Assembly (NCBI GenBank): GCA_000091205.1
Contig: AP006500.2
Source: Cyanidioschyzon merolae
Lineage: Eukaryota
DNA length: 64,000 nucleotides
Strand: one strand, 5' to 3'
The notes below the pieces were generated by a model, which worked only from the letters and a program-made list of their open reading frames with translations, was not told the origin of the DNA and made no database searches. Below are positions 10,162 through 56,420 of the stretch, piece after piece (position 1 is the stretch's first letter; each line of letters begins with the position of its first letter). A program made the translations under genes and the position numbers.

Positions 10162-11073
10162 TCAGCCCCACCATTGCATGTTGCCACCAGTGTAGTACTG
10201 CTGCTGCTGCTGCTGCTGCTGCCCTTTCTTAACTTGGGCGTACTGCTGCTTCTGTTGTTGTCCTTTCTGAAATTTGGCATACTGCTGCTTCTGTTGTTCT
10301 TGTTGCTGCTGCTGTTGCACGATCTGCGTAGCCTGTACCTGCTCTTGCTGAGCCTGTTGGCAAACCTGGACATTTTGATACTGCTGGCAAACCTGCTGGT
10401 ACCCTGTGCACTTCTGGCCGTACTGTGCGCATCCTTGCTCGTATTGCTCGCATTTGCCTTGTTGATACTGTGTGCACTTGTTCTCGTATTGCGCACACAC
10501 CTGTTCGGTTTGGTACTGCGTGGTATACTTCAGACACTTGTTCTTGTTCTGTTGGTACTTTGCGCACACCTGCTTGCAAACCGGCGTCTGCTGCCATCGG
10601 CGCATTGCGCCGTTCCATCCTTTCTTCTCCTGAACAGCCGCGGAAACCTGCTGCTTCTGAGGTGCTGGGGCAGGCGCAGGCTTCTGTGGTGCGACTTGTT
10701 GTTTTTGTTGCTGCTGCTGCTGCTGCTGCTGCTGAGCAACCGCCGATATTTGCTGCTGCTGCTGCTGCTGCTCGCAGCTAGAAGTGTATTCAACGCACTC
10801 CTGTGCATATTGTGCGCAGACCTGCACCGGCTTTTGCACAGTCTGGTACTGCACGCACTGCTGTTCCTGCTTCACGCACTCCTGCGCATACTGCTTGCAC
10901 TGCTGAATAGGCTGCAGGCATACCTTCTGATAACCAGTGCACTGGTTGCCATACTGAACACACTGCTGCTGCGTACTGCACTGTTGGTTCCAGGCAAACA
11001 CACCGGTTGTTACGGCACAGAAGGCCCAGACCAGAAGCACGACACGAGCAAAACTTGAATATCTAGACGACAT
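10162..11073 (-). CDS. Secreted cysteine-module Gln-rich protein, paralog B
   Basis: ATG at 11073 with signal peptide MSSRYSSFARVVLLVWAFCAVTTGVFA. An N-terminal Cys module (CSTQQQCVQYGNQCTGYQKVCLQPIQQCKQYAQECV...) is followed by polyQ runs and MRRW, then the second conserved 10-Cys module (CKQVCAKYQQNKNKC...GKCEQYEQGCAQYGQKCTGYQQVCQQYQNVQVC). The tail is Q-rich and ends in WWG. Confidence 0.7.
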   Translation of the reverse strand: MSSRYSSFARVVLLVWAFCAVTTGVFAWNQQCSTQQQCVQYGNQCTGYQKVCLQPIQQCKQYAQECVKQEQQCVQYQTVQKPVQVCAQYAQECVEYTSSCEQQQQQQQISAVAQQQQQQQQQQKQQVAPQKPAPAPAPQKQQVSAAVQEKKGWNGAMRRWQQTPVCKQVCAKYQQNKNKCLKYTTQYQTEQVCAQYENKCTQYQQGKCEQYEQGCAQYGQKCTGYQQVCQQYQNVQVCQQAQQEQVQATQIVQQQQQQEQQKQQYAKFQKGQQQKQQYAQVKKGQQQQQQQQYYTGGNMQWWG

Positions 11074-16676: not shown

Positions 16677-19120
16677 GATTAGCGTTCTCTGGTCTCAGGT
16701 TAACATTCGGGGCGCAGGCAGACTGTCGACAATTTACAAACGCTTCGAGACACCTCACCAGCGATCGCACAGAGCTCCTCTGTGCTCGATGCGGTGGCAG
16801 GTTTGAGCGTCTCGCATGTCTAGCGCGCATGCGAAGAACTGATGGCACGTGAGCGACGGCAGCAGCAGCAGCAGCATCCCTGATGATAAATTCCGAACAA
16901 GTCCGCGCGAATATCTGCACGAGTGGCAGAGAGGCTTTTCCTAGTCCGGCGATATCCTTAGCGGCTGCGATCATACGTTTTACTCTACGAGTCCTGTCGC
17001 GGTTCCTTTTGCAAAAGTCTCGTACACTTCGAGAAGCACGAGATGCCACTGCCTCGCGTCTGTGGCAGCAAACGCTGTGCAAAACGGCCGAGCCGCATGA
17101 TATGCTGCCAACCGAATCGCTCCGAGTTGTATATTGCGAGGATACGAGATCCAATGAAGTGGCTCTCGGAGTTTCCCGAGAACGACGCCGCAGCGACCGT
17201 GGCGCTGTGCACCTTTTTCTGAGTCACTGAGAAGGAGCGTTATGGCCTGGGCCTTGCAAGAAACACTCGCCCAAGCCAGCATGCTCCGAAGCGCCTGCGA
17301 GTCTTTGCGGTACTTTGGTAGGCATTCCGATCTGCAGAGCTGATCTCACGGCTTTCTGCGACCTCGATTGAGGATACCGCTGGCGGGATGCGCCATCCGA
17401 ACGACCCTGGGCCAAAAGCGAGCGTGCAGTTTTCAGAAGAAACTTCTAGGTCTCTAGTACGAAAATCCTCCCACGGAATGGACGAGCTCTATTAAGAGAC
17501 GCTGCAGCGAGCAAGCAGCAACGCCAGTGGGAGTCGCAGTTCCTGTAGGTACGAGACATACGCCTCAACACGCTCTCGGCTTGCAAGCGAGTTCTGTAAA
17601 CGGTACAGGAATGACATTGACATGGCCTCCGCAATCTGTATTCAATCTACTGGGAAGAGGCGCTCATGCTGGATATCTTTTCGCAATATCTCGGGTATGT
17701 AGGCGAATAGCATCATCTTTGCCAGTTGCGCGATAAATAATAACGCTTGCTTATGGGGTTTATGATCAATTTGCTGGGAAGACTCGTCGATGCGTTACTC
17801 ACAAGCCGATGGACGTGCGGACAACATGTTCGAATCATCGATCGTATACCCTGCAAAAGTAATATGTACCGTCTCCCGTGCTCATGGATGTAGGAAAATT
17901 AGTTTTGATATTCCGACACCGTCGCATGAAAAGCAGAATGATCCCCAATTGCGCAGCTGCAACTTTTTGTTCGACAGAAGGTTTACCTGGACCAGCTATC
18001 CCAGAATGGAGGATGGGTACTGGAAATCTAAAATGCGTTCATCATACTGCACCCTACCTTCGAGCTCTATTACCCATGCTTCCTCTTGGATGTACTGGTC
18101 TTTTTGTACTTTCTATCGTGCATCGATTGTCTGCTGTGAGCATCCGCAATAGCACCTATGCAATTGGTACGGATGTGACACAGAGACAGAGTGGCTTTGC
18201 TATACCACTGACAGCATCAGCTCGAGGAGTGCTGCGCTCGACACGGTGTCAAAGTACATAATCATTCTGGGAGCCCGCAGGCTGCGCAGACAGACCTGCT
18301 GTCTGCGGCAGCGCGAAGCGGTATTCTGGGAGATAACTGCAACAAGGGCGACGCATAGACACATTCTACCCGCTCCGAGTGACAGAATAAACTGCGTTGC
18401 GGACGAGTTGCGCAGATCTCACTATAGTGCCCGCCACTGGGAGGAGCATGAAGCGTATGCGGGGCAGATTCGTCCCGCTCGCGGGACCTTTCGCCAAGAA
18501 GGTAAACATTTGACGATATGGAGAGCTTTCCCCTTTTAATGTTTATCGTAGAGGGGGAATGGATTTTTTATATCGTTGGTAGTTCATGGTTAGTCTCTGT
18601 TCTTTTTTCTGTATGGAGCAGTCGATACAATCACCTCTATATCTGGCAGGCACGAGACAGGATGGGCATCTCGCCGTTGAAGCGAAACGCGTTCCTGAAG
18701 AGTATCATGTTGATCTAACAAGATGTATTTGCATTGAAGACGGAGCAATCTATAGTTCAGTCTAATTATGTTCCAACTTTCAAGTGAGTACATTCAAGTG
18801 ATTCTTCGCACTATGTAACGGAGGCGTTCGAAGAGCGTCCTTTTTCAAAAAAGACACTAAAACAGGAAAGTTATGGGAAAGCGAGTCGACGAGCCCTGAG
18901 GCCCAGTGTCGCCGGCTGCCTGAAAAAACAAAAAACAGTGCCGAGTCAAGAAGAAAAGGAAAAGAAAAAGAAGCGAAATGGAGAGGCCCTACGTCGAAGG
19001 CTGCAATAAAGACGACAGTGCGACGAAATCGTAGTAAAACCCTGTCTTCGTAGACATATCAAGGGTCCGCACAAGGAAAAGTCGCAAGACGCCATCAGAA
19101 TCCATATCGCGTCTTACTCC

Positions 19121-19786
19121 ATGAGTATTATAAAGGCGCCGTTAGGACTAATGCATTTGGAGAAGGATACGTGTCGCAACGTGACGGACATCAAAACAAT
19201 TGACGTTCTGGAAGAATTTTTCAACAAGACCTTCACCCGCCACCTGATGCTTGGCACCGGGGAAACGTCGAGTGGAAATGAGCGAGCGCATGCCCTCCAC
19301 GAAAATCACGCCGAATACCGCATCAGCGGTACTCGATCCAGGGGCGACTTGTGTATTGACACCTGCGGGGCAGTCAGGTACTTCACGAACCTAAAGATCC
19401 ATTTGACCGTGAAACTCGAATGCTTCACGATACGCGTCCTGTTTGCGCTGTACTCGGGCCTCTCGCGCACAGGAATATGGGTCATTATCGATGGCATCAC
19501 GAATGATCGCCAGCACGAACAGGAGACTGAGCTCGTCGAAGAGAAGATATCACACAGGAGAACGAATGAGGCTTCTGTCATCCGTGCGGCTATGCAAGAG
19601 CATCGTGCGGACTTGGTGCTCGCGCATCCAGCAGAAAAGGTATCAGATATGAAAAAAGATGAAGAAAGATGCTGTTCCCGAGCCCTGCGCTATTTTACGC
19701 TTTTGGGCCGGGATCTGGAACGCATGGCCGAAAAGCAGCTGAGTCGCGGAAAAATGAAGATTCGGAGGAATGGAAGGCTTTCCTAA
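19121..19786 (+). CDS. Conserved ORF1 of the duplicated module (221 aa, unknown function). It could be the N-terminal WED/REC-like part of the type-1 Fanzor-like gene.
   Basis: ATG-initiated ORF that is intact in both copies (37034..37699) with ~5 aa differences. No motif recognised. It lies immediately upstream of the RuvC-bearing frames and in the same orientation. Confidence 0.4.
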   Translation: MSIIKAPLGLMHLEKDTCRNVTDIKTIDVLEEFFNKTFTRHLMLGTGETSSGNERAHALHENHAEYRISGTRSRGDLCIDTCGAVRYFTNLKIHLTVKLECFTIRVLFALYSGLSRTGIWVIIDGITNDRQHEQETELVEEKISHRRTNEASVIRAAMQEHRADLVLAHPAEKVSDMKKDEERCCSRALRYFTLLGRDLERMAEKQLSRGKMKIRRNGRLS

Positions 19787-21200
19787 TGGGTACGCGCCTC
19801 AACGTCGTTCCGATATGCAGCGCCAACTCATATTTCGTGGCAGTCTGCTCCAGCGTCCCTCATGGCATCGTGAGGGATATCTGTCCGGAGTTCGATGCAG
19901 GCAAGAAGGAGTTCATGGGCCAAAACCGGGAAACTCATTGGAAGAATATCTTCGATTTCAAACGTCTCAATACGGGCAAGAAAGGGTATTCACGGGGACC
20001 ATCGGAAGCGATGGGGCAGCCATGTGTGTACATTACCGGCGGCTGGGGGCGGATCGTCCTATCGTGCCTTCGGCTTCGCCCTCGCCGAAGCATGAAGAAA
20101 AGAAGGAGGCAGATCCTGCGACTCAGGAGGTGCAGGATAACGAGCTTGTCGCTGGCTCGGCGAAGCATGAAGAAAACAACAAGGCGGATCCTGCGACACA
20201 GGAGGTGCAGGATAACGAGCTTGTCGCTGGCTCGGCGAAGCATGAAGAAAACAACAAGGCGGATCCTGCGACACAGGAGGTGCAGGATAACGAGCTTGTC
20301 GCTGGCTCGGCGAAGCATGAAGAAAACAACAAGGCAGATCCTGCGACTCAGAAAGTGCAGGATAACGAGCTTGTCGTTGGCACCGACCCGGGGAACACAA
20401 ATATCGTTACCATCGCTGCACCCAAGCGTGCGGAAGATGGTCCTGACGTTAGCTCACGTCAGAAAGACATGCTTCTTTTAAAGTTCTAAACATAGAAATA
20501 CCATCGAGAATCGGGAATACTGAATACGAGGAAGAAAATCGAGACGTGGAATGCCGCAGTGCAAGAGCATCTGGAAGCTTTGAGCGAGCTGACGAGCCGA
20601 GGAGCGGACTTTCAGGCTTCTCGGAAATCCATGAAAGTTCGTGTTGCTCATTGGGAGGCGCTGTGGGATGAGTATCCAAAGCCCCGGTGGGCTCGTCAGC
20701 GACTGATCTTGTGCTGTGGGAAACAGGGAGCGTTCGCCAACTTTTTCAATGCGTTCGGCGCCCTCAAAGAGGACGAGAGTCAGAGGCTCGCAATAGCGTA
20801 TGGAGCAGGGCGCTGGATGACCCAAAAAGGGTGTACACAGCTCCATCGACAAGAGCGTACAAGAAGTGTGCACATCGTTTTGTCACAATACCTATCGATG
20901 AGTTCCTAACGTCCTATATGCACCATGAGCTGGGGTGCACACTTCCGAGCGTCGAGACGGAAAAGCGTCAGCGGGGCCCTGAGGATATAGCAAAGTACGG
21001 AGCGCTGACAGAGCAGCAAGTAGAAAGTAGGGCGAAAGTTCCTGGGCTACGTGCACTGGTGCGTACAACCAGTGATGGCAAGAAACGTATAGCGTTTGTC
21101 AATCGTGACTCGAACGCCGCTATCAATACCAGGAGATGTACGGTGATGGAGACGAGACCCCCGGAGTTGATACGATCCAACTTTACGCGGCAGCCTCTCA
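19770..21200 (+). pseudogene. Type-1 TnpB/Fanzor-like RNA-guided-nuclease-family gene (OrfB_IS605 / OMEGA superfamily). It is frame-disrupted and probably a pseudogene.
   Basis: RuvC-I-like NELVVGTDPGNTNIVTIA at 20367-20414 (compare the TnpB GIDLG..n.ATLS motif). The frame then breaks (stop at 20489). Further downstream are ...AIAYGAGRW / VYTAPSTRAYKKCAHRF....MHHELGC (a YTSQ.C..C-like zinc-finger region, 20830-20950) and RuvC-III NRDSNAAIN at 21101-21127 (compare dRDvNAAiNI). These motifs lie in at least three frames. Confidence 0.55.
20082..20381 (+). repeat. 75-bp in-frame tandem repeat, 4 units, encoding AKHEENNKADPATQEVQDNELVAGS
   Basis: Units start at 20082, 20157, 20232 and 20307. The last unit runs into the RuvC-I motif, so the repeat duplicates the approach to GTDPG. 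Copy B (37995..38219) has only 3 units. Confidence 0.9.
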
Positions 21201-21364
21201 AGGTGAACTTACCCAGGGACAAGTTGGAACCAGTAGTAGGTGGCCGGTCCAAAAAGACCGGGAGGCGTCTGCACGTCAGCGTACCGACATCCACACTATC
21301 GGCGTCGTGTATATGCGTCGGTATACCTGTTTGGTCTGTGGTAGCTGAGAAGCATGGCCCGTGG

Positions 21365-21964
21365 ATGCCTTTTTCGAGTCGTTTCTTTCGGCAGCTGGTT
21401 CGCGGTGTCAGCTATGTGCCGGTCGTGTACGTTGTCCACGATCTTGTCGGTACGATTGTTCCCGTGAGGGGTGCGTCTATGCAACCAACCCTGAACCCAG
21501 GTGCGGCTGCAGGGGAGCTACCTCCCGGACAAGTTAGCGGCAGTCAGGATGTCGTGTTGGTTAGCCGGCTTCTCCGCGCTGTTTGGAACGTAAGGCGTGG
21601 GGATATCGTCGTTTTGCGGTCTCCCGACGCGGGACCGCAGAAGCGACTCGTGAAAAGGGTGGCCGCTCTAGAGGGGGATCGCGTTTACAACCACCGCACT
21701 GGGAAGTTTGTGGAGGTTCCACCTGGCCACTGCTGGCTCGTAGGTGACAACCGTACGGTGTCCCGTGACTCGGCTAGCCACTACGGGCCGGTTCCGCTGG
21801 GACTCCTCGAAGGACGCGCAGTGGCGGTTATCTGGCCACCACGTCGCTGGCAGGTGCTCGCGACGTCACCAAGCACAGGTTTGTGGCTCGACACTCGGAA
21901 CAGCGAGGGAGACCAACTGCCAGCCAAGAAGCAAGTGCTGGCCAAGTCGGCAACTACGAAGTGA
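21365..21964 (+). CDS. IMP1: Mitochondrial inner membrane protease subunit, an IMP1/IMP2-type S26 signal peptidase
   Basis: ATG at 21365. Motifs: VRGASMQPTL (GxSMxPTL nucleophile Ser), RGDIVVLRSP, KRVAALEGD, GHCWLVGDNRTVSRDSASHYGPVPLGL (GDN...S.DSR.YG box D/E). The protein is about 199 aa. Confidence 0.8.
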   Translation: MPFSSRFFRQLVRGVSYVPVVYVVHDLVGTIVPVRGASMQPTLNPGAAAGELPPGQVSGSQDVVLVSRLLRAVWNVRRGDIVVLRSPDAGPQKRLVKRVAALEGDRVYNHRTGKFVEVPPGHCWLVGDNRTVSRDSASHYGPVPLGLLEGRAVAVIWPPRRWQVLATSPSTGLWLDTRNSEGDQLPAKKQVLAKSATTK

Positions 21965-22199
21965 ATGGCTGTACGTCCGGATGGTGAGCAGAGAACGGCG
22001 CTATGGAGCAGCACCCATTTCAGAATACCATACAACGGATCCGCTCAGCGAACTCGGGCGTAGACGCTCAAGTCTGGACCGCTTCGCATTGTCATCTACA
22101 AGAGGTTTTGTGGGCGTTTTCTTCGAGTACGTCCTTTTCCTCGCTCTTGTCTCCGGTATTGTATACGTCGAACGATGCATGTTGTCTTGTTGGGTTGCC

Positions 22200-23813
22200 A
22201 GTAACCGAGGCATGTCGACGGCAGCGGTAGAGTCGCGGTATCGCCTCTTCGGGCAGTTGTGGACGCGTTTCATGCCCAGGCAAAAGTTGCCATCGATGGG
22301 TCCTCTGTATGTGTATGCAACGTCGGTGCTGCGTTTGCAGCGGTGACAAACTTGGGTGTGTTCCGGCGTTCCCATGCGTCCCCAACGTACGTTCTCCCTC
22401 TCGGAAGGGCGCTTTGTGGTACCTGTACGCCAGCTCCATCACCCACCATATGGTATCGACGGGTGCAGAGGGCTTGCCCCGAGATCGTCCTCCGTTTCGG
22501 CGCCTGGTGCCGTAAACTGCGATGACGGGCTCGTTCTGGTCGATCGCCTCGGCGAGCACCAGACGCGCTGCAAACACAAGTGCAAACGCCTCCTCTCGAT
22601 GACTCAACATGCGCTGGCTTGCGCGCTCTTCGCTCCCTGAGTACGCTTTTGGCGAAACATGGCGATGATCGTGACGAGCATCGCGTTGCCGTACCTACTC
22701 GTGGGCATTGTGTGTCCACGTGCTTCACTTGTGTGCGAGCGTGCAGTCACGGCTTCTGGGACTCGCTGCTGCTTCCGTCGCTTGCTTGCTGGACGGACGT
22801 TTTTCGCGTTCATTATCTTCCGCTGATACGAAGAGTACAGGCGCGCTGGCAGAATGCACGGCTGCTGGTCCAAGTCAAGTATGCGGGCACAAAACCCGAG
22901 CAGCCATAGCTTCGCCTGTTGCCACCAGGGGTATTGGGTCTCTGTTTGGGTAAAAGAGGAGCGCAGGTGCAGGGGTCCGCACTGCATGCTCCAGGCTGGT
23001 GCAGAGTGCATTGGAGAGCATCCTCGCGAGGCGATGCATTTGTACGGGTCGTTGCTCGTCTGCGTAGTAGCTCGTCTGTGCTGTATAGGTCGTTGCTTGT
23101 CTGCGTAGTAGCTCGTCTGGGCTGTACGGGTCGTTGCTTGTCTGCGTAGTTGCTCGTCTGGGCTGCACGGGTCGTTGCTCGTCTGCGTAGTAGCTCGTCT
23201 GGGCTGTACGGGTCGTTGCTGGTCTGCGCAGTAGCTCGTCTGGGCTGTACGGGTCGTTGCTGGTCTGCGCAGTAGCTCGTCTGGGCTGTATAGGTCATTG
23301 CTCCTCTTCGTAGTAGCTCGTCTGGGCTGTACGGGTCGTTGCTCGTCTGCATAGTAGCTCGTCTGGGCAGGGGTGCTTTTCAGCTCTGACGGTGTCATGA
23401 ATCGTATGGGAGGTTCGCTGTTGTCCTTGTTGATAATGGCGATATTGGCCGATACGCTTACGCAGTCGGTCTCGACGAAAGACGCAACCTCTCCTGGTCG
23501 TATTGCGAAGCTGGTATTCCCGCAGTTTTTCCTTCCCGCTTGCATCTATTGCTTGCGAGGCATGGTGTCGCCACTGCCGAGCGGTGTTTCCTCGATGACC
23601 GTGAAGAAAAGCGGATTCGACTTGAGCACCGAATCGATTATTTGACGTGACAAATCCAGTCGACTTTCGGAACGGGCCTGCGAACAAGGCATCAAGGGGT
23701 GACGTCGAGGCTGTCTGCTCGTCAACCCAACAGAGCGCATTGCTGCGTCCACGAGTTGCCCTGAATCGGAAAGATCGAAAACTTGAAGCATGTGAGATTC
23801 GGGTATGCCACAC
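22200..23813 (-). pseudogene. Type-2 TnpB/Fanzor-like gene relic, convergent with the type-1 gene. It carries frameshifts and a 41-bp repeat insertion.
   Basis: Minus-strand frames give RuvC-I-like ARILDLDQQP (~22875), RuvC-II-like LVLAEAIDQNEPVIAVYG (~22553), zinc finger TPEHTQVCHRC...FCLGMKRVHNC (22348-22260) and RuvC-III-like YRDSTAAVDM (22237-22211). These lie in three different frames. The tail is clearly homologous to copy X (29850-30083): TCRHCEW...FRLCMKRVDNRCKWLIRDFNAAAEVV. Confidence 0.45.
23035..23375. repeat. 41-bp tandem repeat (~8 units) inside the type-2 relic
   Basis: Unit gggtcgttgctcgtctgcgtagtagctcgtctgggctgtac. A 41-bp period is not a multiple of 3, so the minus-strand ORF shows a 41-aa periodicity (QRPVQPRRATTQTSNDPYSPDELLRRRATTRAAQTSNYADK). 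Copy B has fewer units (about 40860-41100). Confidence 0.85.
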
Positions 23814-25213
23814 ATAAGGAGAGAAGAAGCGAAGCAGCTTGCAAATATGAGTTGGATATCGATTTCTGTTTTTTTACGGACCCGTGTTCGGGGGTATCGC
23901 GAATCATTCTGACTCCGATGAAGGAACGCATTCCAGCGGTAAATCGTTCAAGGTAACGCTCCGAAAACACGACCAAGAATCCTAAAACTACGCGTGAACC
24001 CGTATGCCCATAGTGCTGCACTTGGAATCTTGATGCCGCAGATCCAGAGAAAAACGTTTGGATGTATCGCAAGCTAGGAAGAGCGCAAGCAGCTCAAAAC
24101 TCCATGATAACGTAATACGGTTCTAGAGACCTGCTCTGGGGCCGCGCTCCCATCCGCAGAGGCAGCGCACGAAAGCAACAGCACTAGCCAAAAAAATGAG
24201 CTCGAACGGGTTCACATATCGGCATACATTGCATTACCGATTTCGCATGGCGTGGAACTGGGGAGAGAGCATCCCAATATGGAAACGTACTCAGCCGGGC
24301 ACGCGTCTGCATCCGCAGCATATGCGCAGGTCCCGTGAAAGGACCACCTGCGGCGCCGTGCGGCCCGCGCTGCACCAGGCCAGCTTCTCTGACAGCCTAA
24401 ACAGCGCCAATGCTCCCGTGACCTGGACTACGCTCAAGGTCTAGCTCCGCAGCAAACGACGTACCTGCTGTCGCTCGCCGCCCTGAACTAAACGCACGCA
24501 CGCGTACGCGTCCTCGAGTTGGGCGCTTCACGAAAGCGACCCGAGCAGCCGCAGGCTGCAAAACGTGCTCCCTTGTTGCCTAGCGCTTTCTCACGAGAAT
24601 AACCTCGAACCGGTACGCCTTCGAAGCAAAGAAAAGCGCCTGCGAGCTCGACCTCGTATGCAGCCTATAAACGAGGCTCCTGGGGTGCTCGTTATCGAGC
24701 TTCAGTGCACGCATCGATACAGCCCCCGCCACGTTTCCCACCGAACAAAGCACCGTGATCTCTGTTGCATCGTCATGCACCAGTCACGTATCAACCTCTG
24801 CGAAAAGCAAGCTCGATGCATACAACCAACAACAACCGTACGCATCAGCAAGCAAGCATCGAAGCAGATGGCAACAAACAGTGCCCTTGGCGCGTGCTGC
24901 TGCCTCCTTCGGGAGATTGTTTTCGGACAACGCAGCAGCGATCGCGCGCGCGCGCCTCGAAGGCCATCAGCTGCAATTCGACGCTGCCTCGAAAGTGTGC
25001 GTTCGATCCGCACTACGGCGGCGCGAGCTGTCACGACTCCGGTGACCCCCAGCGAACAGTTCGCATCGAGATAGAAGTCGAAGTTTGCAACGTGGCAGTG
25101 CCAGCTTGCGCTATAGCATGGCCCCGGAGGAGGCGCCAGTCCAATGCTTCCAAAGCAATTTGTGTTTGGACTTGTTCTAGCTCGAACAACATCTGTAATC
25201 CGATTGTATCTCA

Positions 25214-27091
25214 TTGAAAGCCATGAACATGAGGCTGCTCTATCTGGCCGCTATTGTAGTGGTCCTGGCGGCGACGCTGCTGCAAAGTGCGGCCGCCATG
25301 GACTACTATCAGAAGGATATGAAACAGAAGAAGCAGTGCTACACAGTCGAGAAGTGTGTGAAGCAGGAGCGCAAATGTATCCAATATGAGAAGGTTTGCA
25401 CGCAGCCGCAGAAGAAGTGCATCCAGCACGAACTTATCTGTGTGCAGCAAGAGAACCAGTGCAAGCAGTACGAGCCCGAATACCAGAATGTTAAAGTCTG
25501 TGTTGCGTACGAGAAAGAATGCGTGCAATGGAACTATAAGGATGAGTGCCAGCAGGAGTACGTCCAACAGAACAATTACTTCTGGGGCATGAGATGGTCC
25601 AATGAGAAGAAGAAGGAGCCTGTCAAGAAACAGTGCAAGAAAGTTCAGAACGGCTGCGCACAGTGGCAGGAGAACAAGAACAAGTGCGCACAGTATGGCG
25701 AACAACAACAGAAGATCGGACAAAAGTGCTCCGACTATGTCCAGGTGTGCACGAAGACGAAACCCGGGAAATGCATCCAGTATCAGGAGACCTGCAACAA
25801 CTATCAGCAGCAGTGTGCACAATGGGCTAACGTGTGCCAGCAGTACAAGAAGGAGATCGTCTGTCCTGAACCCAAGAAGGAGCCGCAGAAGAAAGTTAAG
25901 CAAGAGCAGTACGTGAAGAAGGACAACTACGTGTGGCGAATGTACGATCAAAAGAAAAAGTATGATCAGAAAAACGTAGAGCAGCAACAGAAGAATGAAT
26001 GGTTCCAGCAGCAGAATGAGAAGAAGCAGTACTATTGGCAGCCACAGAAGACCCAGTACTACAAGAAGAATGATTACAAGAAGAATGTTTACAACGACCA
26101 GAAACAGTACTACTGGGAGCCACAGAAGACCCAGTACTACAAGAAGAATGATTACAAGAAGAATGTTTACAACGACCAGAAACAGTACTACTGGGAGCCG
26201 CAGAAGACCCAGTACTACAAGAAGAATGACTACAAGAAGAATGTTTACAACGATCAGAAGCAGTACTACTGGGAGCCGCAGAAGACCCAGTACTACAAGA
26301 AGAATGACTACTACCAAAAGAAGGACAACTACGTGTGGCGAATGTACGATCAAAAGAAAAAGTATGATCAGAAAAACGTAGAGCAGCAACAGAAGAATGA
26401 ATGGTTCCAGCAGCAGAATGAGAAGAAGCAGTACTATTGGCAGCCACAGAAGACCCAGTACTACAAGAAGAATGATTACAAGCAGAATGTTTACAACGAC
26501 CAGAAACAGTACTACTGGGAGCCGCAGAAGACCCAGTACTACAAGAAGAATGACTACAAGAAGAATGTTTACAACGACCAGAAACAGTACTACTGGGAGC
26601 CGCAGAAGACCCAGTACTACAAGAAGAATGACTACAAGAAGAATGTTTACAACGATCAGAAGCAGTACTACTGGGAGCCGCAGAAGACCCAGTACTACAA
26701 GAAGAATGACTACTACCAAAAGAAGGACAACTACGTGTGGCGAATGTACGATCAAAAGAAAAAGTATGATCAGAAAAACGTAGAGCAGCAACAGAAGAAT
26801 GAATGGTTCCAGCAGCAGAATGAGAAGAAGCAGTACTATTGGCAGCCACAGAAGACCCAGTACTACAAGAAGAATGACTACAAGAAGAACGTTTACAACG
26901 ACCAGAAACAGTACTACTGGGAGCCGCAGAAGACCCAGTACTACAAGAAAAATGACTACAAGAAGAATGTTTACAACGACCAGAAACAGTACTACTGGGA
27001 GCCGCAGAAGACCCAGTACTACAAGAAGAATTACAATCTATACGGAAAGAAAGAAAATCCATACGTTCCGCAGTATTACTACTGGGAGTGA
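25214..27091 (+). CDS. Secreted cysteine-module Gln/Lys/Tyr-rich repeat protein, paralog C (625 aa)
   Basis: ATG at 25214 with signal peptide MKAMNMRLLYLAAIVVVLAATLLQSAAA. An N-terminal Cys module is followed by WNYKDECQQ, MRW and CKKVQNGCAQWQENKNKC...GKCIQYQETCNNYQQQCAQWANVCQQYKKEIVC. After that come 2.9 copies of a 134-aa repeat rich in K/Q/Y/N/W. Confidence 0.75.
   Translation: MKAMNMRLLYLAAIVVVLAATLLQSAAAMDYYQKDMKQKKQCYTVEKCVKQERKCIQYEKVCTQPQKKCIQHELICVQQENQCKQYEPEYQNVKVCVAYEKECVQWNYKDECQQEYVQQNNYFWGMRWSNEKKKEPVKKQCKKVQNGCAQWQENKNKCAQYGEQQQKIGQKCSDYVQVCTKTKPGKCIQYQETCNNYQQQCAQWANVCQQYKKEIVCPEPKKEPQKKVKQEQYVKKDNYVWRMYDQKKKYDQKNVEQQQKNEWFQQQNEKKQYYWQPQKTQYYKKNDYKKNVYNDQKQYYWEPQKTQYYKKNDYKKNVYNDQKQYYWEPQKTQYYKKNDYKKNVYNDQKQYYWEPQKTQYYKKNDYYQKKDNYVWRMYDQKKKYDQKNVEQQQKNEWFQQQNEKKQYYWQPQKTQYYKKNDYKQNVYNDQKQYYWEPQKTQYYKKNDYKKNVYNDQKQYYWEPQKTQYYKKNDYKKNVYNDQKQYYWEPQKTQYYKKNDYYQKKDNYVWRMYDQKKKYDQKNVEQQQKNEWFQQQNEKKQYYWQPQKTQYYKKNDYKKNVYNDQKQYYWEPQKTQYYKKNDYKKNVYNDQKQYYWEPQKTQYYKKNYNLYGKKENPYVPQYYYWE
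25916..27088 (+). repeat. 402-bp coding tandem repeat (2.9 copies), each unit containing four 78-bp subrepeats
   Basis: Units start at 25916, 26318 and 26720. The subrepeat encodes KQYYWEPQKTQYYKKNDYKKNVYNDQ (26 aa). Confidence 0.9.
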
Positions 27092-27479
27092 AAATCAGCA
27101 GGGAGCCACCGAACATCTGGGAGCGTCTGAAACGGTGGGGGCACGGGAAAGTTTACGGATTGGCGATTGCGCCGCTACGTACAGGTTAGACTCTTGCCAG
27201 TAAACCGATAGAGTACACCAGAATGCAGTTTGCGCTTATGGCGGGTACCTCGATCGTGTCAGGTGAGTTGCAAGGCATAGGCGCCGTGGTCTATATCGAC
27301 ACAGCATGCATGCTGTGTCTCTGCGAAGATCACCGGATCCGGCGGACGTTGCGGGCACCATAACTTAAACCACGACGGCAACATGTTACCGATATGAACT
27401 GTCATCGGTGCCAGCCCGTGACCCCCCAATAGCAGCCGCATTCAAAACAGTTCCTCATTGCAGCGACCGTGCCGCACGC

Positions 27480-28203: not shown

Positions 28204-29133
28204 ATGATCAAGAAAACTGTTTTGTGTTTTGCAGTAGCGCTGGTGCTTTGCATCGTAGCACCGATGAAGGGTGCGCAGGCCTGGTACAACACCGTAGCAC
28301 AGCAGGAGCAGTGCTATCAGAAGCAGGTGTGCACTCAGTATGACAACCAGTGCACAGGATATAGCAACGTATGTTTGCAGTGGGGCGAGCAGTGCAAGCA
28401 ATACGAGCAGGTGTGCACAAGCTGGGAAACCAAGTGCCTTGCCTATGAGGATGTTTACAAGACCACTCAGGTCTGCGCCCAGTACGCCCAGACGTGCGCA
28501 CAGTGGAACTACAAGGAGGACTGCCAACAGGTCAAGCAGGAGCAGAAGCAATACTATACTGCCGTGGAGACGCCAGTTGCAAAACAGGACTACAAGAAGA
28601 AGCAAGACTATGTCAAGAAGCAGGAGGATCAGCAGAAGAAGGACCAGTACATCTGGGGCCAAAACGGCTGGCGCTGGTACAACCAGGAGCAGCAGCAGAA
28701 GCAGCAGGTTCAGGTGAAGAAGGTCATCGAGACTCCGATCGCCACCCAGACCTGCAAGAAGGTGCAAGCTGGATGTGCTCGCTGGCAGCAGGACACCTCC
28801 AAGTGCGAGCAGTGGACTACAAACAAACAGAAGATCGGCGTTCGGTGCGCAAACAGCGCTCAGGTATGCTCCAACTACACACAGGGCAAGTGCGCTCAGA
28901 GCGAGCAGGTCTGCCTGAGTTATGGCCAGAAATGCACGGGCTACCAGCAAGTGTGCAAGTCGTACGGCTGGCAATGGGTCTGCCAGCAGGTTCAGGCCAC
29001 TGAACAGTACCAGCAGAAGCAGGTTTACGGCCAGAAGGAAGTATACGGCCAGCAACAGAAGCAAAAGTACCAGAAGGACCAAAAGCAGTACCAGGATCAG
29101 CAGAACTACTGGCAGAAGCAGTACATGTGGTGA
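28204..29133 (+). CDS. Secreted cysteine-module Gln/Lys/Tyr-rich protein, paralog D
   Basis: ATG at 28204 with signal peptide MIKKTVLCFAVALVLCIVAPMKGAQA. Modules: CYQKQVCTQYDNQCTGYSNVCLQWGEQCKQYEQVCTSWETKC, WNYKEDCQQ, WRW and CKKVQAGCARWQQDTSKC...GKCAQSEQVCLSYGQKCTGYQQVCKSYGWQWVC. The tail is Q/Y/K-rich and ends QYMW. Confidence 0.75.
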   Translation: MIKKTVLCFAVALVLCIVAPMKGAQAWYNTVAQQEQCYQKQVCTQYDNQCTGYSNVCLQWGEQCKQYEQVCTSWETKCLAYEDVYKTTQVCAQYAQTCAQWNYKEDCQQVKQEQKQYYTAVETPVAKQDYKKKQDYVKKQEDQQKKDQYIWGQNGWRWYNQEQQQKQQVQVKKVIETPIATQTCKKVQAGCARWQQDTSKCEQWTTNKQKIGVRCANSAQVCSNYTQGKCAQSEQVCLSYGQKCTGYQQVCKSYGWQWVCQQVQATEQYQQKQVYGQKEVYGQQQKQKYQKDQKQYQDQQNYWQKQYMW

Positions 29134-36640: not shown

Positions 36641-37033
36641 TTTTCGTTAACTTCATAGCCAAGCACAGTTTTTCAGTTCATTTGTGTTTCACACCTCAAC
36701 TAAAAAATTCGATTGATATTTCGCAGTATATAACGGAGGCTTTCGAATAGCGTGCTTTTTCGAAAAAGACGCTAAAAAAGGAAAGTTATGGGAAAGCGAG
36801 TCGACGAGCCTTGAGGCCCAGTGTCGCCGGCTGCCTGAAAAACAAAAAACAGTGCCGAGTCAAGAAGAAAAGAAAAGAAAAAGAAGCAAAAGGGAGAGGC
36901 CCTACGTCGAAGGCTGCAATAAAGACGACAGTGCGACGAAATCGTAGTAAAACCCTGTCTTCGTAGACATATCAAGGGTCCGCACAAGGAAAAGTCGCAA
37001 GACGCCATCAGAATCCATATCGCGTCTTACTCC

Positions 37034-37699
37034 ATGAGTATTATAAAGGCGTCGTTAGGACTAATGCATTTGGAGAAGGATACGTGTCGCAACGTGACGG
37101 ACATCAAAACAATTGACGTTCTGGAAGAATTTTTCAACAAGACCTTCACCCGCCACCTGATGCTTGGCACCGGGGAAACGTCGAGTGGAAGTGAGCGAGC
37201 GCATGCCCTCCACGAAAATCACGCCGAATACCGCTTCAGCGGTACTCGATACAGGGGCGACTTGTGTATTGACACCTGCGGGGCGGTCAGGTACTTCACG
37301 AACCTGAAGATCCATTTGACCGTGAAACTCGAATGCTTCACGATACGCGTCCTGTTTGCGCTGTACTCGGGCCTCTCGCGCACAGGAATATGGGTCATTA
37401 TCGATGGCATCACGAATGATCGCCAGCACGAACAGGAGACTGAGCTCGTCGAAGAGAAGATATCACACAGGAGAACGAATGAGGCTTCTGTCATCCGTGC
37501 GGCTATGCAAGAGCATCGTGCGGACTTGGTGCTCGCGCATCCAGCAGAAAAGGTATCAGATATGAAAAAAGATGAAGAAAGATGCTGTTCCCGAGCCCTG
37601 CGCTATTTTATGTTTTTGGGCCGGGATCTGGAACGCATGGCCGAAAAGCAGCTGAGTCGCGGAAAAATGAAGATTCGGAGAAATGGAAGGCTTTCCTAA
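37034..37699 (+). CDS. ORF1 copy B (221 aa, unknown function)
   Basis: Intact paralog of 19121..19786. Confidence 0.4.
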   Translation: MSIIKASLGLMHLEKDTCRNVTDIKTIDVLEEFFNKTFTRHLMLGTGETSSGSERAHALHENHAEYRFSGTRYRGDLCIDTCGAVRYFTNLKIHLTVKLECFTIRVLFALYSGLSRTGIWVIIDGITNDRQHEQETELVEEKISHRRTNEASVIRAAMQEHRADLVLAHPAEKVSDMKKDEERCCSRALRYFMFLGRDLERMAEKQLSRGKMKIRRNGRLS

Positions 37700-39038
37700 T
37701 GGGTACGCGCTTCAACGTCGTTCCGATATGCAGCATCAACTCACATTTCGTGGCAGTCTGCTCCAGCGTCCCTCATGGCATCATGAGGGATATCTGTCAG
37801 GAGTTCGATGCAGGCAAGAAGGAGTTCATGGGCCAAAACCGGGAAACTCATTGGAAGAATATCTTCGATTTCAAACGTCTCAATACGGGCAAGAAAGGGT
37901 ATTCACGGGGACCATCGGAAGCGATGGGGCAGCCATGTGTGTCCACTACCGGCGGCTGAGGGCGGATCGACCTATCGTGCCTTCGGCTTCGCCCTCGCCG
38001 AAGCATGAAGAAAAGAAGGAGGCAGATCCTGCGACACAGGAGGTGCAGGATAACGAGCTTGTCGTTGGCTCGGCGAAGCATGAAGAAAACAACAAGGTAG
38101 ATCCTGCGACTCAGAAAGTGCAGGATAACGAGCTTGTCGTTGGCTCGGCGAAGCATGAAGAAAACAACAAGGCAGATCCTGCGACACAGGAGGTGCAGGA
38201 TAACGAGCTTGTCGTTGGCACCGACCCGGGGAACACAAATATCGTTACCATCGCTGTACCCAAGCGTGCGGAAGATGGTCCTGACGTTAGCTCACGTCAG
38301 AAAGACATGCTTCTTTTAAAGTTCTAAACATAGAAATACCATCGAGAATCGGGAATACTGAATACGAGGAAGAAAATCGAGACGTGGAATGCCGGAGTGC
38401 AAGAGCATCTGGAAGCTTTGAGCGAGCTGACGAGCCGAGGAGCGGACTTTCAGGCTTTTCGGAAATCCATGAAAGTTCGTGTTGCTCATTGGGAGGCGCT
38501 GTGGGAGGAGTATCCAAAGCCCCGGTGGGCTCGTCAGCGACTGATCTTGTGTTGTGGGAAATAGGGAGCGTTCGCCAACTTTTTCAATGCGTTCGGCGCC
38601 CTCAAAGAGGACGAGAGTCAGAGGCTCGCAATAGCGTATGGAGCAGGGCGCTGGATGACCCAAAAAGGGTGTACACAGCTCCATCGACAAGAGCGTACAA
38701 GAAGTGTGCACATCGTTTTGTCACAATACCTATAGATGAGTTCCTAACGTCCTATATGCACCATGAGCTGGGGTGCACACTTCCGAGCGTCGAGACGGAA
38801 AAGCGTCAGCGGGGCCCTGAGGATATAGCAAAGTACGGAGCGCTGACAGAGCAGCAAGTAGAAAGTAGGGCGAAAGTTCCTGGGCTACGTGCACTGGTGC
38901 GTACAACCAGTGATGGCAAGAAACGTATAGCGTTTGTCAATCGTGACTCGAACGCCGCTATCAATACCAGGAGATGTACGGTGATGGAGACGAGACCCCC
39001 GGAGTTGATACGATCCAACTTTACGGGGCAGCCTCTCA
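37683..39038 (+). pseudogene. Type-1 TnpB/Fanzor-like pseudogene, copy B
   Basis: RuvC-I-like LVVGTDPGNTNIVTIA at 38205-38252. The zinc finger and NRDSNAAIN (38939-38965) are in the frame of ORF 38384..39802. The same frame disruptions as copy A are present, plus one extra stop. Confidence 0.55.
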
Positions 39039-39202
39039 AGGTGGACTTACCCAGGGACAAGTTGGAACCAGTAGTAGGTGGCCGGTCCAAAAAGACCGGG
39101 AGGCGTCTGCACGTCAGCGTACCGACATCCACACTATCGGCGTCGTGTATATGCGTCGGTATACCTGTTTTGTCTGTGGTAGCTGAGAAGCATGGCCCGT
39201 GG

Positions 39203-39802
39203 ATGACTTTTTCGAGTCGTTTCTTTCGGCAGCTGATTCGCGGTGTCAGCTATGTGCCGGTCGTGTACGTTGTCCACGATCTTGTCGGTACGATTGTTCC
39301 CGTGAGGGGTGCGTCTATGCAACCAACCCTGAACCCAGGTGCGGCTGCAGGGGAGCTACCTCCCGGACAAGTTAGCGGCAGTCAGGATGTCGTGTTGGTT
39401 AGCCGGCTTCTCCGCGCTGTTTGGAACGTAAGGCGTGGGGATATCGTCGTTTTGCGGTCTCCCGACGCGGGACCGCAGAAGCGACTCGTGAAAAGGGTGG
39501 CCGCTCTAGAGGGGGATCGCGTTTACAACCACCGCACTGGGAAGTTTGTGGAGGTTCCACCTGGCCACTGCTGGCTCGTAGGTGACAACCGTACGGTGTC
39601 CCGTGACTCGGCTAGCCACTACGGGCCGGTTCCGCTGGGACTCCTCGAAGGACGCGCAGTGGCGGTTATCTGGCCACCACGTCGCTGGCAGGTGCTCGCG
39701 ACGTCACCAAGCACAGGTTTGTGGCTCGACACTCGGAACAGCGAGGGAGACCAACTGCCAGCCAAGAAGCAAGTGCTGGCCAAGTCGGCAACTACGAAGT
39801 GA
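39203..39802 (+). CDS. IMP1: IMP1/IMP2-type S26 mitochondrial inner membrane peptidase, paralog B
   Basis: ATG at 39203. All catalytic boxes match copy A. There are 2 aa differences (P/T, V/I) in the N-terminal segment. Confidence 0.8.
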   Translation: MTFSSRFFRQLIRGVSYVPVVYVVHDLVGTIVPVRGASMQPTLNPGAAAGELPPGQVSGSQDVVLVSRLLRAVWNVRRGDIVVLRSPDAGPQKRLVKRVAALEGDRVYNHRTGKFVEVPPGHCWLVGDNRTVSRDSASHYGPVPLGLLEGRAVAVIWPPRRWQVLATSPSTGLWLDTRNSEGDQLPAKKQVLAKSATTK

Positions 39803-40037
39803 ATGGCTGAACGTCCGGATGGTGAGCAGAGAACGGCGCTATGGAGCAGCACCCATTTCAGAATACCATACAACGGATCCGCTCAGCGAACTCGGGCGTA
39901 GACGCTCAAGTCTGGACCGCTTCGCATTGTCATCTACAAGAGGTTTTGTGGGCGTTTTCTTCGAGTACGTCCTTTTCCTCGCTCTTGTCTCCGGTATTGT
40001 ATACGTCGAACGATGCATGTTTTCTTGTTGGGTTGCC

Positions 40038-41546
40038 AGTAACCGAGGCATGTCGACGGCAGCGGTAGAGTCGCGGTATCGCCTCTTCGGGCAGTTGTGG
40101 ACGCATTTCATGCCCAGGCAAAAGTTGCCATCGATGGGTCCTCTGTATTTGTATGCAACGTCGGTGCTCCGTTTGCAGCGGTGACAAACTTGGGCGTGTT
40201 CTGGCGTTCCCATGCGTCCCCAACGTACGTTCTCCCTCTCGGAAGGGCGCTTTGTGGTACCTGTACGCCAGCTCCATCACCCACCATATGGTATCGACGG
40301 GTGCAGAGGGCTTGCCCCGAGATCGTCCTCCGTTTCGGCGCCTGGTGCCGTAAACTGCGATGACGGGCTCGTTCTGGTCGATCGCCTCGGCGAGCACCAG
40401 ACGCGCTGCAAACACAAGTGCAAACGCCTCCTCTCGATGACTCAACATGCGCTGGCTTGCGCGCTCTTCGCTCCCTGAGTACGCTTTTGGCGAAACATGG
40501 CGATGATCGTGACGCGCATCGCGTTGCCGTACCTACTCGTGGGCATTGTGTGTCCACGTGCTTCACTTGTATGCGAGCGTGCAGTCACGGCTTCTGGGAC
40601 TCGCTGCTGCTTCCGTCGCTTGCTCGCTGGACGGACGTTTTTCGCGTTCATTATCTTCCGCTGATACGAAGAGTACAGGCGCGCTAGCAGAATGCACGGC
40701 TGCTGGTCCAAGTCAAGTATGCGGGCACAAAACCCGAGCAGCCATAGCTTCGCCTGTTGCCACCAGGGGTATTGGGTCTCTGTTTGGGTAAAAGAGGAGC
40801 GCAGGTGCAGGGGTCCGCACTGCATGCTCCAGGCTGGTGCAGAGTGCATTGGAGAGCATCCTCGCGAGGCGATGCATTTGTACGGGTCGTTGCTCGTCTG
40901 CGTAGTAGCTCGTCTGCATAGTAGCTCGTCTGGGCTGTACGGGTCGTTGCTGGTCTGCGCAGTAGCTCGTCTGGGCTGTATAGGTCATTGCTCCTCTTCG
41001 TAGTAGCTCGTCTGGGCTGTACGGGTCGTTGCTCGTCTGCATAGTAGCTCGTCTGGGCTGTTCGGGTCGTTGCTGGTCTGCGCAGTAGCTCGTCTGGGCA
41101 GGGGTGCGTTTCAGCTCTGACGGTGTCATGAATCGTATGGGAGGTTCGCTGTTGTCCTTGTTGATAATGGCGATATTGGCCGATACGCTTACGCAGTCGG
41201 TCTCGACGAAAGACGCAACCTCTCCTGGTCGTATTGCGAAGCTGGTATTCCCGCAGTTTTTCCTTCCCGCTTGCATCTATTGCTTGCGAGGCATGGTGTT
41301 GCCACTGCCGAGCGGTGTTTCCTCGATGACCGTGAAGAAAAGCGGATTCGACTTGAGCACCGAATCGATTATTTGACGTGACAAATCCAGTCGACTTTCG
41401 GAACGGGCCTGCGAACAAGGCATCAAGGGGTGACGTCGAGGCTGTCTGCTCGTCAACCCAACAGAGCGCATTGCTGCGTCCACGAGTTGCCCTGAATCGG
41501 AAAGATCGAAAACTTGAAGCATGTGAGATTCGGGTATGCCACACAT
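40038..41546 (-). pseudogene. Type-2 TnpB/Fanzor-like relic, copy B
   Basis: ORF 39839..40213(-) carries the CHRC...FCLGMKCVHNC...YRDSTAAVDM tail. RuvC-II-like LVLAEAIDQN is in ORF 39930..40448(-). Confidence 0.45.
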
Positions 41547-42783
41547 AAGGAGAGAAGAAGCGAAGCAGCTTGCAAATATGAGTTGGATATCGATTTCTGT
41601 TTTTTTACGGACCCGTGTTCGGGGGTATCGCGAATCATTCTGACTCCGATGAAAGAACGCATTCCAGCGGTAAATCGTTCAAGGTAACGCTCCGAAAACA
41701 CGACCAAGAATCCTAAAACTACGCGTGAACCCGTATGCCCATAGTGCTGCACTTGGAATCTTGATGCCGCAGATCCAGAGAAAAACGTTTGGATGTATCG
41801 CAAGCTAGGAAGAGCGCAAGCAGCTCAAAACTCCATGATAACGTAATACGGTTCTAGAGACCTGCTCTGGGGCCGCGCTCCCATCCGCAGAGGCAGCGCA
41901 CGAAAGCAAAAGCACAGGACGACTGCACCAGACACCAGCGAGACCGCGGCTCACGACCCGCTCGACAGACACCTGCGTTTGCTCCTTCATCGCACCGCTG
42001 CTTGCACTGCCTCAGACTCGTTCATAACCCAGCATACAAAAGCGTAGAGCGAGATTGTATCCCCCTTCACCGGCTGATCTGACAGGTGTCTTGCGCTGTT
42101 GCTGCTGTTGCTGCTGTTGCCGGTTCTGCAGGCCTCAACTCAAGCGCTCTGAAGTGCAGCAAGCGCATCGCCGGTTCCCCAGCACGTCTGCATGCGCTTT
42201 ACAGGCAACGGAAAGCCAGCGCGTGCGAGAGACGCTCGTATCCCGCCAACGCACTTGCCACGACTTTAACTCGACCAGGAGGCACAAACCTTCCTGCCCA
42301 GCCGAACCGAAGGTTGAACACGCTCTCGTAGCAGCGACGAATAACCGTCTGCGACAATCTTCAGGGACAAGAGGTCAGTCTCATACGAGTGCCTGACCAG
42401 AAAACCGTTATTCCCAGGTACCTAAACCCGAGCGTCTATCCCAGGTCACTAGAGCTGCACCTAGCGCCAGCACAGTGCACTCGGAGACGCAGCACTTACT
42501 CCAAAGTCGTAGCTTTCTCAAGTCGATATCGAACAGTGCTGGAACCGGTTCCCGGCATACTTGCGTCCATTCACGCTAGACTCTATGTGCAGTTCGAACA
42601 AGTGCCTACAAAACCTTGTGCAGTTTCCCGCATCCAGGATGCATATCGCACGCGCTGGTGACTGCTGAACCGCATCATCGACCGATCCACCAGGTGTTGT
42701 ACTGCTTCTTTCACTATCGATCCACCTGGCGCGTTCGCGTTGGTTCAGGATATGCACAGGCTGCCCGACGACAACCAGGACTC

Positions 42784-54836: not shown

Positions 54837-56420
<1,584 letters not shown>

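Follow-up and report, generated by a model that had tools for sequence, protein, structure and literature searches.

A nested, lysine- and tyrosine-rich coding repeat in a predicted secreted protein of Cyanidioschyzon merolae 10D, and its possible place in the diploid cell wall

A 64,000-nucleotide stretch from a unicellular red alga of hot springs, Cyanidioschyzon merolae (contig AP006500.2 of assembly GCA_000091205.1; the whole of it is called “the window” below) contains, at positions 25916-27088, a hierarchical tandem repeat of extreme amino acid composition. What is such a sequence doing there: is it part of a gene, is it kept by selection, and what kind of protein would carry it? The first of these can be answered plainly: the flagged region belongs to an intact protein-coding gene of C. 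merolae 10D and forms the C-terminal tail of its product. The array lies in frame within an uninterrupted open reading frame (ORF) of 1,869 base pairs (bp), whose first ATG is at 25223 and which encodes 622 amino acids (aa); in the ORF list the complete coding sequence runs from 25223 to 27091 on the plus strand, 622 aa and a stop. The gene is one of four paralogs in the window, lettered A to D here in order of position, and is referred to as paralog C.

Exact protein matches place the window on chromosome 18 (1.25 Mb) of strain 10D: these are to CMR328C (BAM82536.1), which is paralog D, and to Rft1, a proteasome subunit and threonine synthase, all three of which come after CMR328C in the window. 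The duplicated S26 peptidase genes of the window are CMR326C and CMR333C. Paralog C lies between CMR326C and CMR328C and, judging from the numbering of these neighbours, is probably locus CMR327C. Exact look-ups of the 622-aa protein, of alternative starts and of all the metagenome length variants described below gave no match in the protein collection, and a full-text literature search found no paper on CMR323C-CMR328C.

The array is periodic on two scales. Tandem Repeats Finder reports a 402-bp period over 25916-27031 (2.8 copies, 99% matches, 0 indels, score 2190) and, nested within it, a 78-bp period over 26022-27031 (12.6 copies, 75% matches); self-BLAST of the array aligns 714 bp at 99.0% identity. 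A first-pass annotation, made from the letters alone, had described three near-identical 134-aa units, each of four 78-bp subunits and a spacer. The near-identity and the nesting hold under this check, but the counts need correction. Units 1 (25916-26317) and 2 (26318-26719), both on the plus strand, are complete at 134 aa, while unit 3 (26720-27031, plus strand) is truncated after 312 bp (104 aa). A full unit consists of a 36-aa spacer (KKDNYVWRMYDQKKKYDQKNVEQQQKNEWFQQQNEK), three 26-aa subrepeats and a fourth subrepeat truncated to 20 aa; the spacer as earlier quoted overran into the first subrepeat. The subrepeats start at 26024, 26102, 26180 and 26258 in unit 1 and at 26426, 26504, 26582 and 26660 in unit 2, the last of each being truncated, and at 26828, 26906 and 26984 in unit 3, where the last is again partial. 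This gives 11 KQYYW subrepeats across the array, 8 of them full-length, with the 26-aa consensus KQYYW[EQ]PQKTQYYKKNDYKKNVYNDQ, of which KQYYWEPQKTQYYKKNDYKKNVYNDQ is one instance.

Three nucleotides separate units 1 and 2, and one of these changes is nonsynonymous (K>Q); unit 3 differs from unit 1 at 5 sites and from unit 2 at 4. The subrepeat variants recur in the same order in every unit, the first always having Q6 and the TAT/CCA codons, so amplification of the 78-bp element preceded duplication of the 402-bp block. The tail was built in two steps, a 26-aa (78-bp) motif being amplified and the 402-bp block, of a spacer and about four motifs, afterwards duplicated to 2.8 copies. The K/Q/Y/N/W-rich composition reported at first pass is borne out by counting: K accounts for 21.7% of the residues in the 391-aa array, Y for 20.2%, Q for 18.4%, N for 10.5%, D for 6.9% and W for 4.6%. 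The array has 85 lysines and zero Cys, Ser, Ala or His, and its proline (3%) sits solely as the single P of WEPQ/WQPQ.

Is the array maintained as protein sequence? Among the eight full subrepeats there are 9 variable sites, 7 synonymous and 2 nonsynonymous, where synonymous sites make up 10.3 of the 78 positions of a subrepeat (13%; binomial p = 2e-5). A codon-level comparison between units, which the first-pass annotation had suggested, gives 5 synonymous differences to 1 nonsynonymous. Against the ortholog from a Cyanidiococcus-like alga (see below), the ratio of nonsynonymous to synonymous change (dN/dS) is about 0.05 in the cysteine-rich region and about 0.08 in the alignable tail, with synonymous sites saturated (proportion of synonymous differences, pS, about 0.7). 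The motifs YVWRMYD.KKKYD, NVEQQQKNEWFQ and KQYYWQP are kept in that ortholog, as is LYGKK.NPYVP..YYW at the C-terminal end. Synonymous bias, low dN/dS and kept motifs together argue that the tail is constrained in sequence, and not in composition alone. On this evidence the array is translated and under purifying selection, in agreement with the earlier impression of a selected, structural-looking low-complexity tail, here on a protein with a predicted signal peptide.

The array also appears to be young. Its units diverge by 0.75-1.6%, similar to the 0.5-1.2% by which flanking DNA differs between 10D and metagenome haplotypes, so that the expansion is recent or recently homogenised; the figure lies below the 2-3% divergence of a neighbouring 5.3-kb segmental duplication. 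The very recent expansion proposed at first pass therefore stands, with homogenisation added as a second route to the same similarity: the 402-bp duplication itself may be very recent, or homogenisation may be ongoing, and unequal recombination or slippage during replication would let the array expand and contract. The locus is present on ten metagenome contigs, and the complete genes among them, always in frame, encode (as assembled) 328, 354 (three contigs), 462 and 488 aa, compared with 622 aa in 10D. The length differences, mutually and relative to 10D, are multiples of 26 or 134 aa, the complete contigs having a single spacer or two, with 2 to 7 subrepeats, between the same N- and C-termini. 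With assembly breakpoints falling inside the array, these lengths are not taken here as copy-number polymorphism within the species. A scan of metagenome DNA with a unique 30-mer matched two contigs, neither of them new.

The rest of the protein points outwards from the cell. A predicted signal peptide (MNMRLLYLAAIVVVLAATLLQSAAA; 25223-25297, plus strand; cleavage before MDYY), read from the sequence, has a basic n-region, a hydrophobic core that spans 16 residues, and Ala at both -3 and -1, a layout common to all paralogs and orthologs. Neither a membrane anchor nor a hydrophobic signal at the C-terminus is recognisable in the sequence of paralog C, and this together with the canonical signal peptide suggests that it is secreted. 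Two cysteine-heptad domains follow on the plus strand: domain 1 (25337-25549; residues 39-109), with 10 invariant Cys at spacings 6,7,7,7,7,7,13,7,9, and domain 2 (25634-25864; residues 138-214), also with 10 invariant Cys, similar to the first only weakly (BLASTP E = 3e-5). Between them is a linker (25550-25633, plus strand) whose conserved W..RW motif (NYFWGMRWSNEKKK) is apparent from alignments. The N-terminal half is disulfide-capable.

The tail begins with a unique segment (PEPKKEPQKKVKQEQYV; 25865-25915, plus strand; read from the sequence), continues with the array and closes, directly after the truncated unit 3, with a unique C-terminal end (NYNLYGKKENPYVPQYYYWE) and TGA stop (27032-27091, plus strand). 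Over its full 408 aa it is 22% K, 20% Y and 18% Q, with roughly 79 tyrosines, and its computed charge is about +92 at pH 2 (about +0.23 per residue) and about +44 at pH 7. AlphaFold gives the tail almost no secondary structure, at a predicted local distance difference test (pLDDT) score of 38, and it is probably intrinsically disordered.

Is the tail peculiar to this gene? The four window paralogs share one layout: signal peptide, 10-Cys heptad domain, Q-rich W..RW linker, second 10-Cys domain and a Q/K/Y-rich tail ending in W. Paralog A (7052-7735, minus strand) has about 227 aa from MMKPG; paralog B (10162-11073, minus strand), of 303 aa, has a poly-Q linker and a Q-rich tail with a 39-bp repeat; paralog D (CMR328C; M1UWF1; 28204-29133, plus strand), of 309 aa, has a Q/K/Y tail. 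From A to D the tails measure 17, 65, 408 and 49 aa; beside paralogs with tails of 17-65 aa, the flagged array takes a family-wide feature to an extreme. Across eight compared tails K+Y+Q amounts to 47-69% and the terminus is W/Y-rich, two of them ending in a charged or polar residue after the last aromatic. Small in-frame tandem repeats are also present in the tails of paralog B (10204-10298, 39 bp x 2.4) and paralog D (29014-29052, 18 bp x 2.2), which suggests that repeat formation is a family-wide tendency of the tails.

The 20 Cys columns are invariant across the four window paralogs and are also aligned in proteins of Cyanidium and Cyanidiococcus, which match the family at E = 1e-42 to 1e-84. 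When 1.84 billion representative proteins were searched with a profile, full-length relatives were found solely in Cyanidioschyzon, Cyanidiococcus and Cyanidium: CDCA14G3890 and CDCA14G3897 in Cyanidium caldarium, and the CCYA15G3913 cluster in Cyanidiococcus yangmingshanensis. Other members of the family are all annotated “hypothetical protein”. They share with paralog C the signal peptide, the 10+10 Cys, the W..RW linker, the Q/K/Y tail and clustered syntenic loci, but have short tails, of 17-65 aa, that are for the most part rich in Q; within the family the long, K/Y-rich, hierarchical array is confined to the line of “C” orthologs.

Curated collections offer no name for this family. A homolog search with the 622-aa query returned 8000 low-complexity candidates, none significant. 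Pfam assigned 0 families to paralogs A, C and D, and gave only sub-threshold noise for paralog B and the scanned orthologs and relatives; the sub-threshold matches (Toxin_30, PLA2_inh, MSG, Paramecium_SA) are set aside as noise from cysteine periodicity. NCBIfam gave 0 matches to paralogs C and D, and in a profile search of PDB sequences the best E was 0.14, the repeat unit finding no match at E <= 10. On present sequence evidence paralog C is best described as a member of an unnamed family of predicted secreted proteins with double Cys-heptad domains, found so far only in three genera. No description of the family, of its domains or of a possible link to the walled diploid was found in the literature searched.

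Some more distant similarities turned up alongside. Small secreted metagenome proteins (P0004, P0070 and P0073-P0075, at loci L020 and L022-L024) have the same C.QY... heptads, matching the family profile at E = 1e-6 to 1e-9. Gene neighbourhoods were inspected for the P0004 and P0075 clusters, and both are bacterial, with genes adjoining cobalamin-biosynthesis or radical-SAM genes. They are not counted here as homologs or as products of transfer: a periodic low-complexity similarity of this size (1e-6 to 1e-8) cannot separate descent from convergence. In another predicted protein, P0067, from a 2.6-kb JGI metagenome contig, the first 110 residues of paralog B are fused to a sequence resembling a zinc finger of the CSL/DPH3 type. 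It is probably a chimera of assembly or gene calling, though it could be a rearranged allele.

The positional orthologs of paralog C show what is kept and what changes. Gene order (S26 peptidase, C, D, Rft1, Nas2/glyoxalase, PSME4) is the same in the window, in Cyanidium caldarium (locus L008) and on a 200-kb Cyanidiococcus-like metagenome contig (L019). A 2,195-aa intron-less ORF at 42616-49203 of the window is the PSME4/Blm10-type proteasome activator, going by Pfam matches on the syntenic orthologs, and its position confirms conserved synteny of the whole block. In Cyanidium caldarium the “C” ortholog is a 464-aa ORF whose tail has two large units 384 bp apart, 96% identical, each with 81-bp subrepeats (KVETKKPKYYVQQTKKVEATKEVQVTK). 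In the Cyanidiococcus-like alga it is a 368-aa ORF (L019:14620-15726, minus strand) in which a single spacer is accompanied by a 66-bp subrepeat (KQYYWQPKKQDNKKNYYDQKDQ) in 3.8 copies. The “C” tails of the three genera are alike in composition (K 22-27%, Y 8-20%, Q 14-18%) and isoelectric point (9.5-9.7).

The type of tail is thus conserved, and its period, copy number and higher-order duplication are lineage-specific, which points to independent expansion or concerted evolution. Change of array length between genera is secure, the tails measuring 156, 255 and 408 aa, and the length-variable region expected at first pass is real at this level. The gene thus offers a natural example of a protein tail of constant chemistry whose length each lineage sets anew. 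The Cyanidiococcus-like ortholog has two copies of YVWRMYD.KKKYD, one in the inter-domain linker and one heading the tail; the tail spacer may derive from a duplicated linker.

Repetitive, cross-linkable extracellular proteins are a known kind, and comparison with several of them is instructive. Mussel foot proteins (Mfp-1, -3 and -5) are likewise secreted, polycationic, probably disordered and built of short tandem repeats high in Lys and Tyr, and synergy of flanking Lys with aromatic residues is a principle of their design (PMC7403305). Paralog C differs from them in that its tail is not rich in Gly, Ser or Pro, Mfps have no double Cys-heptad domain, and the host here is a unicellular alga living at pH 1-3. 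As to relatedness, Pfam, NCBIfam and PDB sequences gave no match whatever, although these libraries may lack Mfp models and no direct comparison was made.

The walls of coccidian oocysts combine Tyr-rich with Cys-rich proteins. In Eimeria, GAM56/GAM82 are Tyr-rich precursors that harden the protein wall of a resistant stage and are dityrosine cross-linked (PMC2726925, PMC4776368), and these and the sporocyst-wall proteins resemble paralog C in being secreted and rich in Tyr, given its predicted signal peptide. There is no homology, however, and in paralog C the Cys-rich and Tyr-rich parts share one polypeptide, with Lys much higher. The substrates of animal lysyl oxidase (LOX), such as elastin and collagen telopeptides, are also lysine-bearing extracellular structural proteins, and a secreted LOX occurs in the same three genera as the Cys-heptad family; the tail has neither KAAK/KxxK in polyalanine nor a Gly-X-Y context, and it is no more than a putative substrate.

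Two further memberships were considered and rejected. The Ser-rich domain of silaffins and cingulins is missing from an array with zero Ser, and the Ser-Pro(3-5) repeats of extensins and other hydroxyproline-rich glycoproteins are missing from one without Ser and with 3% Pro. The adhesive or biomineralisation likeness drawn in the first-pass annotation is thereby narrowed: its adhesive half survives as a K/Y compositional resemblance only, and its mineral half is disfavoured by the absence of Ser. By analogy, then, the tail would be like mussel-foot or GAM56/GAM82 proteins in composition and architecture without belonging to either family.

What might such a protein do? The explanation that we favour, at about even confidence, is that paralog C is a structural protein of the extracellular matrix or cell wall in the walled diploid phase. 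C. merolae 10D is haploid and has no wall; the diploid has one, reported as 50-55% protein, without cellulose synthases; expression differs between the two phases for 35-50% of the genes for secretory proteins; and a secreted lysyl oxidase is diploid-specific, occurring in Cyanidioschyzon, Cyanidiococcus and Cyanidium and not in Galdieria (PMC13353863). RBOH genes, too, are diploid-biased in these algae (PMC13353863), and Yellowstone close relatives of 10D are walled (PMC13062707). Cross-linking of the wall proteins by a lysyl oxidase-like enzyme has been proposed, with no substrate named (PMC6508830), and the lysyl oxidase has been suggested by published work to be horizontally acquired. The Cys-heptad family and lysyl oxidase have the same three-genus distribution.

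If paralog C is a wall protein, its disulfide-rich N-terminal half might provide an acid-stable core or a polymerising module, and the tail a length-tunable module for cohesion and cross-linking. The secreted, diploid-specific lysyl oxidase would act on the ~85 tail lysines, and the ~79 tail tyrosines could enter oxidative dityrosine-type coupling and add cation-pi cohesion; array length would then set the amount of cross-linkable, positively charged material that every molecule brings in. That the tail is in fact a lysyl oxidase substrate we consider possible but doubtful. A more ambitious version has the four-gene cluster, and above all paralog C, encoding the protein scaffold of the wall, with the tail as a lysyl oxidase substrate forming a proton-excluding layer of fixed charge. 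In this version the cross-linked tail would present fixed positive charge and keep protons out by Donnan exclusion, which would help to explain diploid tolerance of pH 0.5-2, and repeat number would tune wall thickness or charge density. This we think unlikely.

Several points weigh against the wall proposal. The assignment draws on the signal peptide and composition, on how the family is distributed among lineages and on what has been published, which make it plausible, and the lysyl oxidase link is one that we infer from the shared three-genus distribution and the lysine content. The tail is unlike known LOX cross-linking domains. For the Cys region AlphaFold proposes a helical structure at low confidence (pLDDT 53), a model that does not settle the fold. 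The length variants, finally, would be fully explained by short-read collapse as well, 4 of the 10 metagenome contigs ending inside the array.

This last observation is also the starting point for a quite different account, in which the array is an artefact of assembly, or the gene a pseudogene decaying in a wall-less laboratory strain. Short-read assemblies do mishandle the array, and the exact 622-aa protein is absent from the protein collection; the length variants are absent from it too, so that absence reflects the database and not the gene. With the same in-frame ORF and the same N- and C-termini in independent metagenome assemblies, an ORF uninterrupted over 1,869 bp, and evidence of purifying selection, this account is hardly credible. 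A neutral origin deserves more weight. The tail could be a functionless low-complexity expansion, a slippage-prone in-frame minisatellite attached to a protein that works through its Cys domains. The array is young, with units 99% identical; paralogs and orthologs retain the gene although their tails vary between 17 and 408 aa; and neighbouring non-coding and transposon arrays in the window also vary in copy number between duplicates. Variation in the array is nevertheless strongly biased to synonymous sites (p = 2e-5), dN/dS of the aligned tail is about 0.08, all four motifs listed above survive synonymous saturation, and a K-rich repeat tail is kept in the positional ortholog of all three genera. 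We regard neutrality as an improbable explanation of the tail.

The remaining alternatives accept a function and place it elsewhere. One, which also counts against a wall role, is that paralog C is a secreted protein of the haploid or gamete phase, serving, for instance, cell-cell adhesion in isogamous mating or coating the wall-less cells. Fast-evolving, repeat-rich surface proteins are typical of mating systems, and the wall-less haploid 10D keeps all four genes intact. Many secretory genes are, moreover, haploid-biased (PMC13353863). An intact gene in 10D fits either reading, however, since this strain can mate into walled diploids; paralog C lacks a membrane anchor and a hydrophobic signal at its C-terminus; natural populations are described as exclusively diploid (PMC13353863); and the gene is intact in metagenomes (flanks about 99% identical), with a dN/dS of about 0.05-0.08 against the Cyanidiococcus-like ortholog. 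We give a haploid role only a slim chance.

Slighter still is the prospect of a silaffin- or cingulin-like template that nucleates silica or another mineral at the cell surface. Dissolved silica is typically high in the geothermal waters where these algae live, and the tail, polycationic and rich in lysine, has stretches dense in Y and W, but a 391-aa array without serine rules out the phosphoserine/lysine chemistry of silaffins. No mineralised wall is described for these algae in the literature searched, and Pfam and NCBIfam give no match to curated families. A template of this kind is very improbable.

Under the wall reading, the Cys-heptad family provides concrete candidates for two missing parts, the wall scaffold and the lysyl oxidase substrate: the wall is reported to be 50-55% protein and free of cellulose, yet no structural protein of it is named in the literature searched. 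The 2026 discovery of the walled diploid makes a wall role directly testable in a genetically tractable system. Should the wall role be wrong, the array is still a constrained, hierarchically built coding minisatellite. For annotation there is a more general caution: arrays of this kind give rise to long antisense ORFs that are spurious, and short-read assemblies collapse them.

The antisense ORFs in question are two, both on the minus strand: an L/V-rich one of 526 aa (25211-26791) and an S-rich one of 406 aa (25896-27116). The first-pass annotation had called them compositional artefacts of an A/G-rich coding strand. The asymmetry is indeed marked (A 43%, G 23%), and the triplets TTA, CTA and TCA, which are stops when read on the opposite strand, number 1 and 6 over the coding sequence in two of the three offsets, the single one being in the offset of the 526-aa ORF. 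When the codons of the coding sequence are shuffled, open antisense stretches average 466 aa and reach at least 400 aa in 73% of shuffles. Both ORFs are thus present on the minus strand, but lengths like theirs are expected from composition alone, and they are compositional artefacts.

The window holds other tandem arrays as well. The segmental duplication mentioned above has two copies of about 5.3 kb (18792-24184 and 36707-41915; 97-98% identity), the first ending about 1 kb upstream of paralog C. It carries transposon-like ORFs adjoining or fused with the S26 signal-peptidase gene (CMR326C, CMR333C), and within it GTDPGNTNIV and FVNRDSNAAINTRRC are sequences that we take to be like the RuvC-I and RuvC-III motifs of TnpB/Fanzor, where Pfam finds nothing. 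A 75-bp coding repeat is present in 4.0 copies in one duplicate (20081-20381) and 3.0 in the other (37994-38219), and a 41-bp repeat in 8.0 (23041-23368) and 4.7 (40908-41099); local tandem arrays therefore change copy number within 2-3% divergence. Further along, a 147-bp tandem repeat (54136-54560; 2.9 copies, 99% identity) overlaps a minus-strand ORF (53564-54208) and lies upstream of the gene for threonine synthase (54993-56420), at a distance of a few hundred bp.

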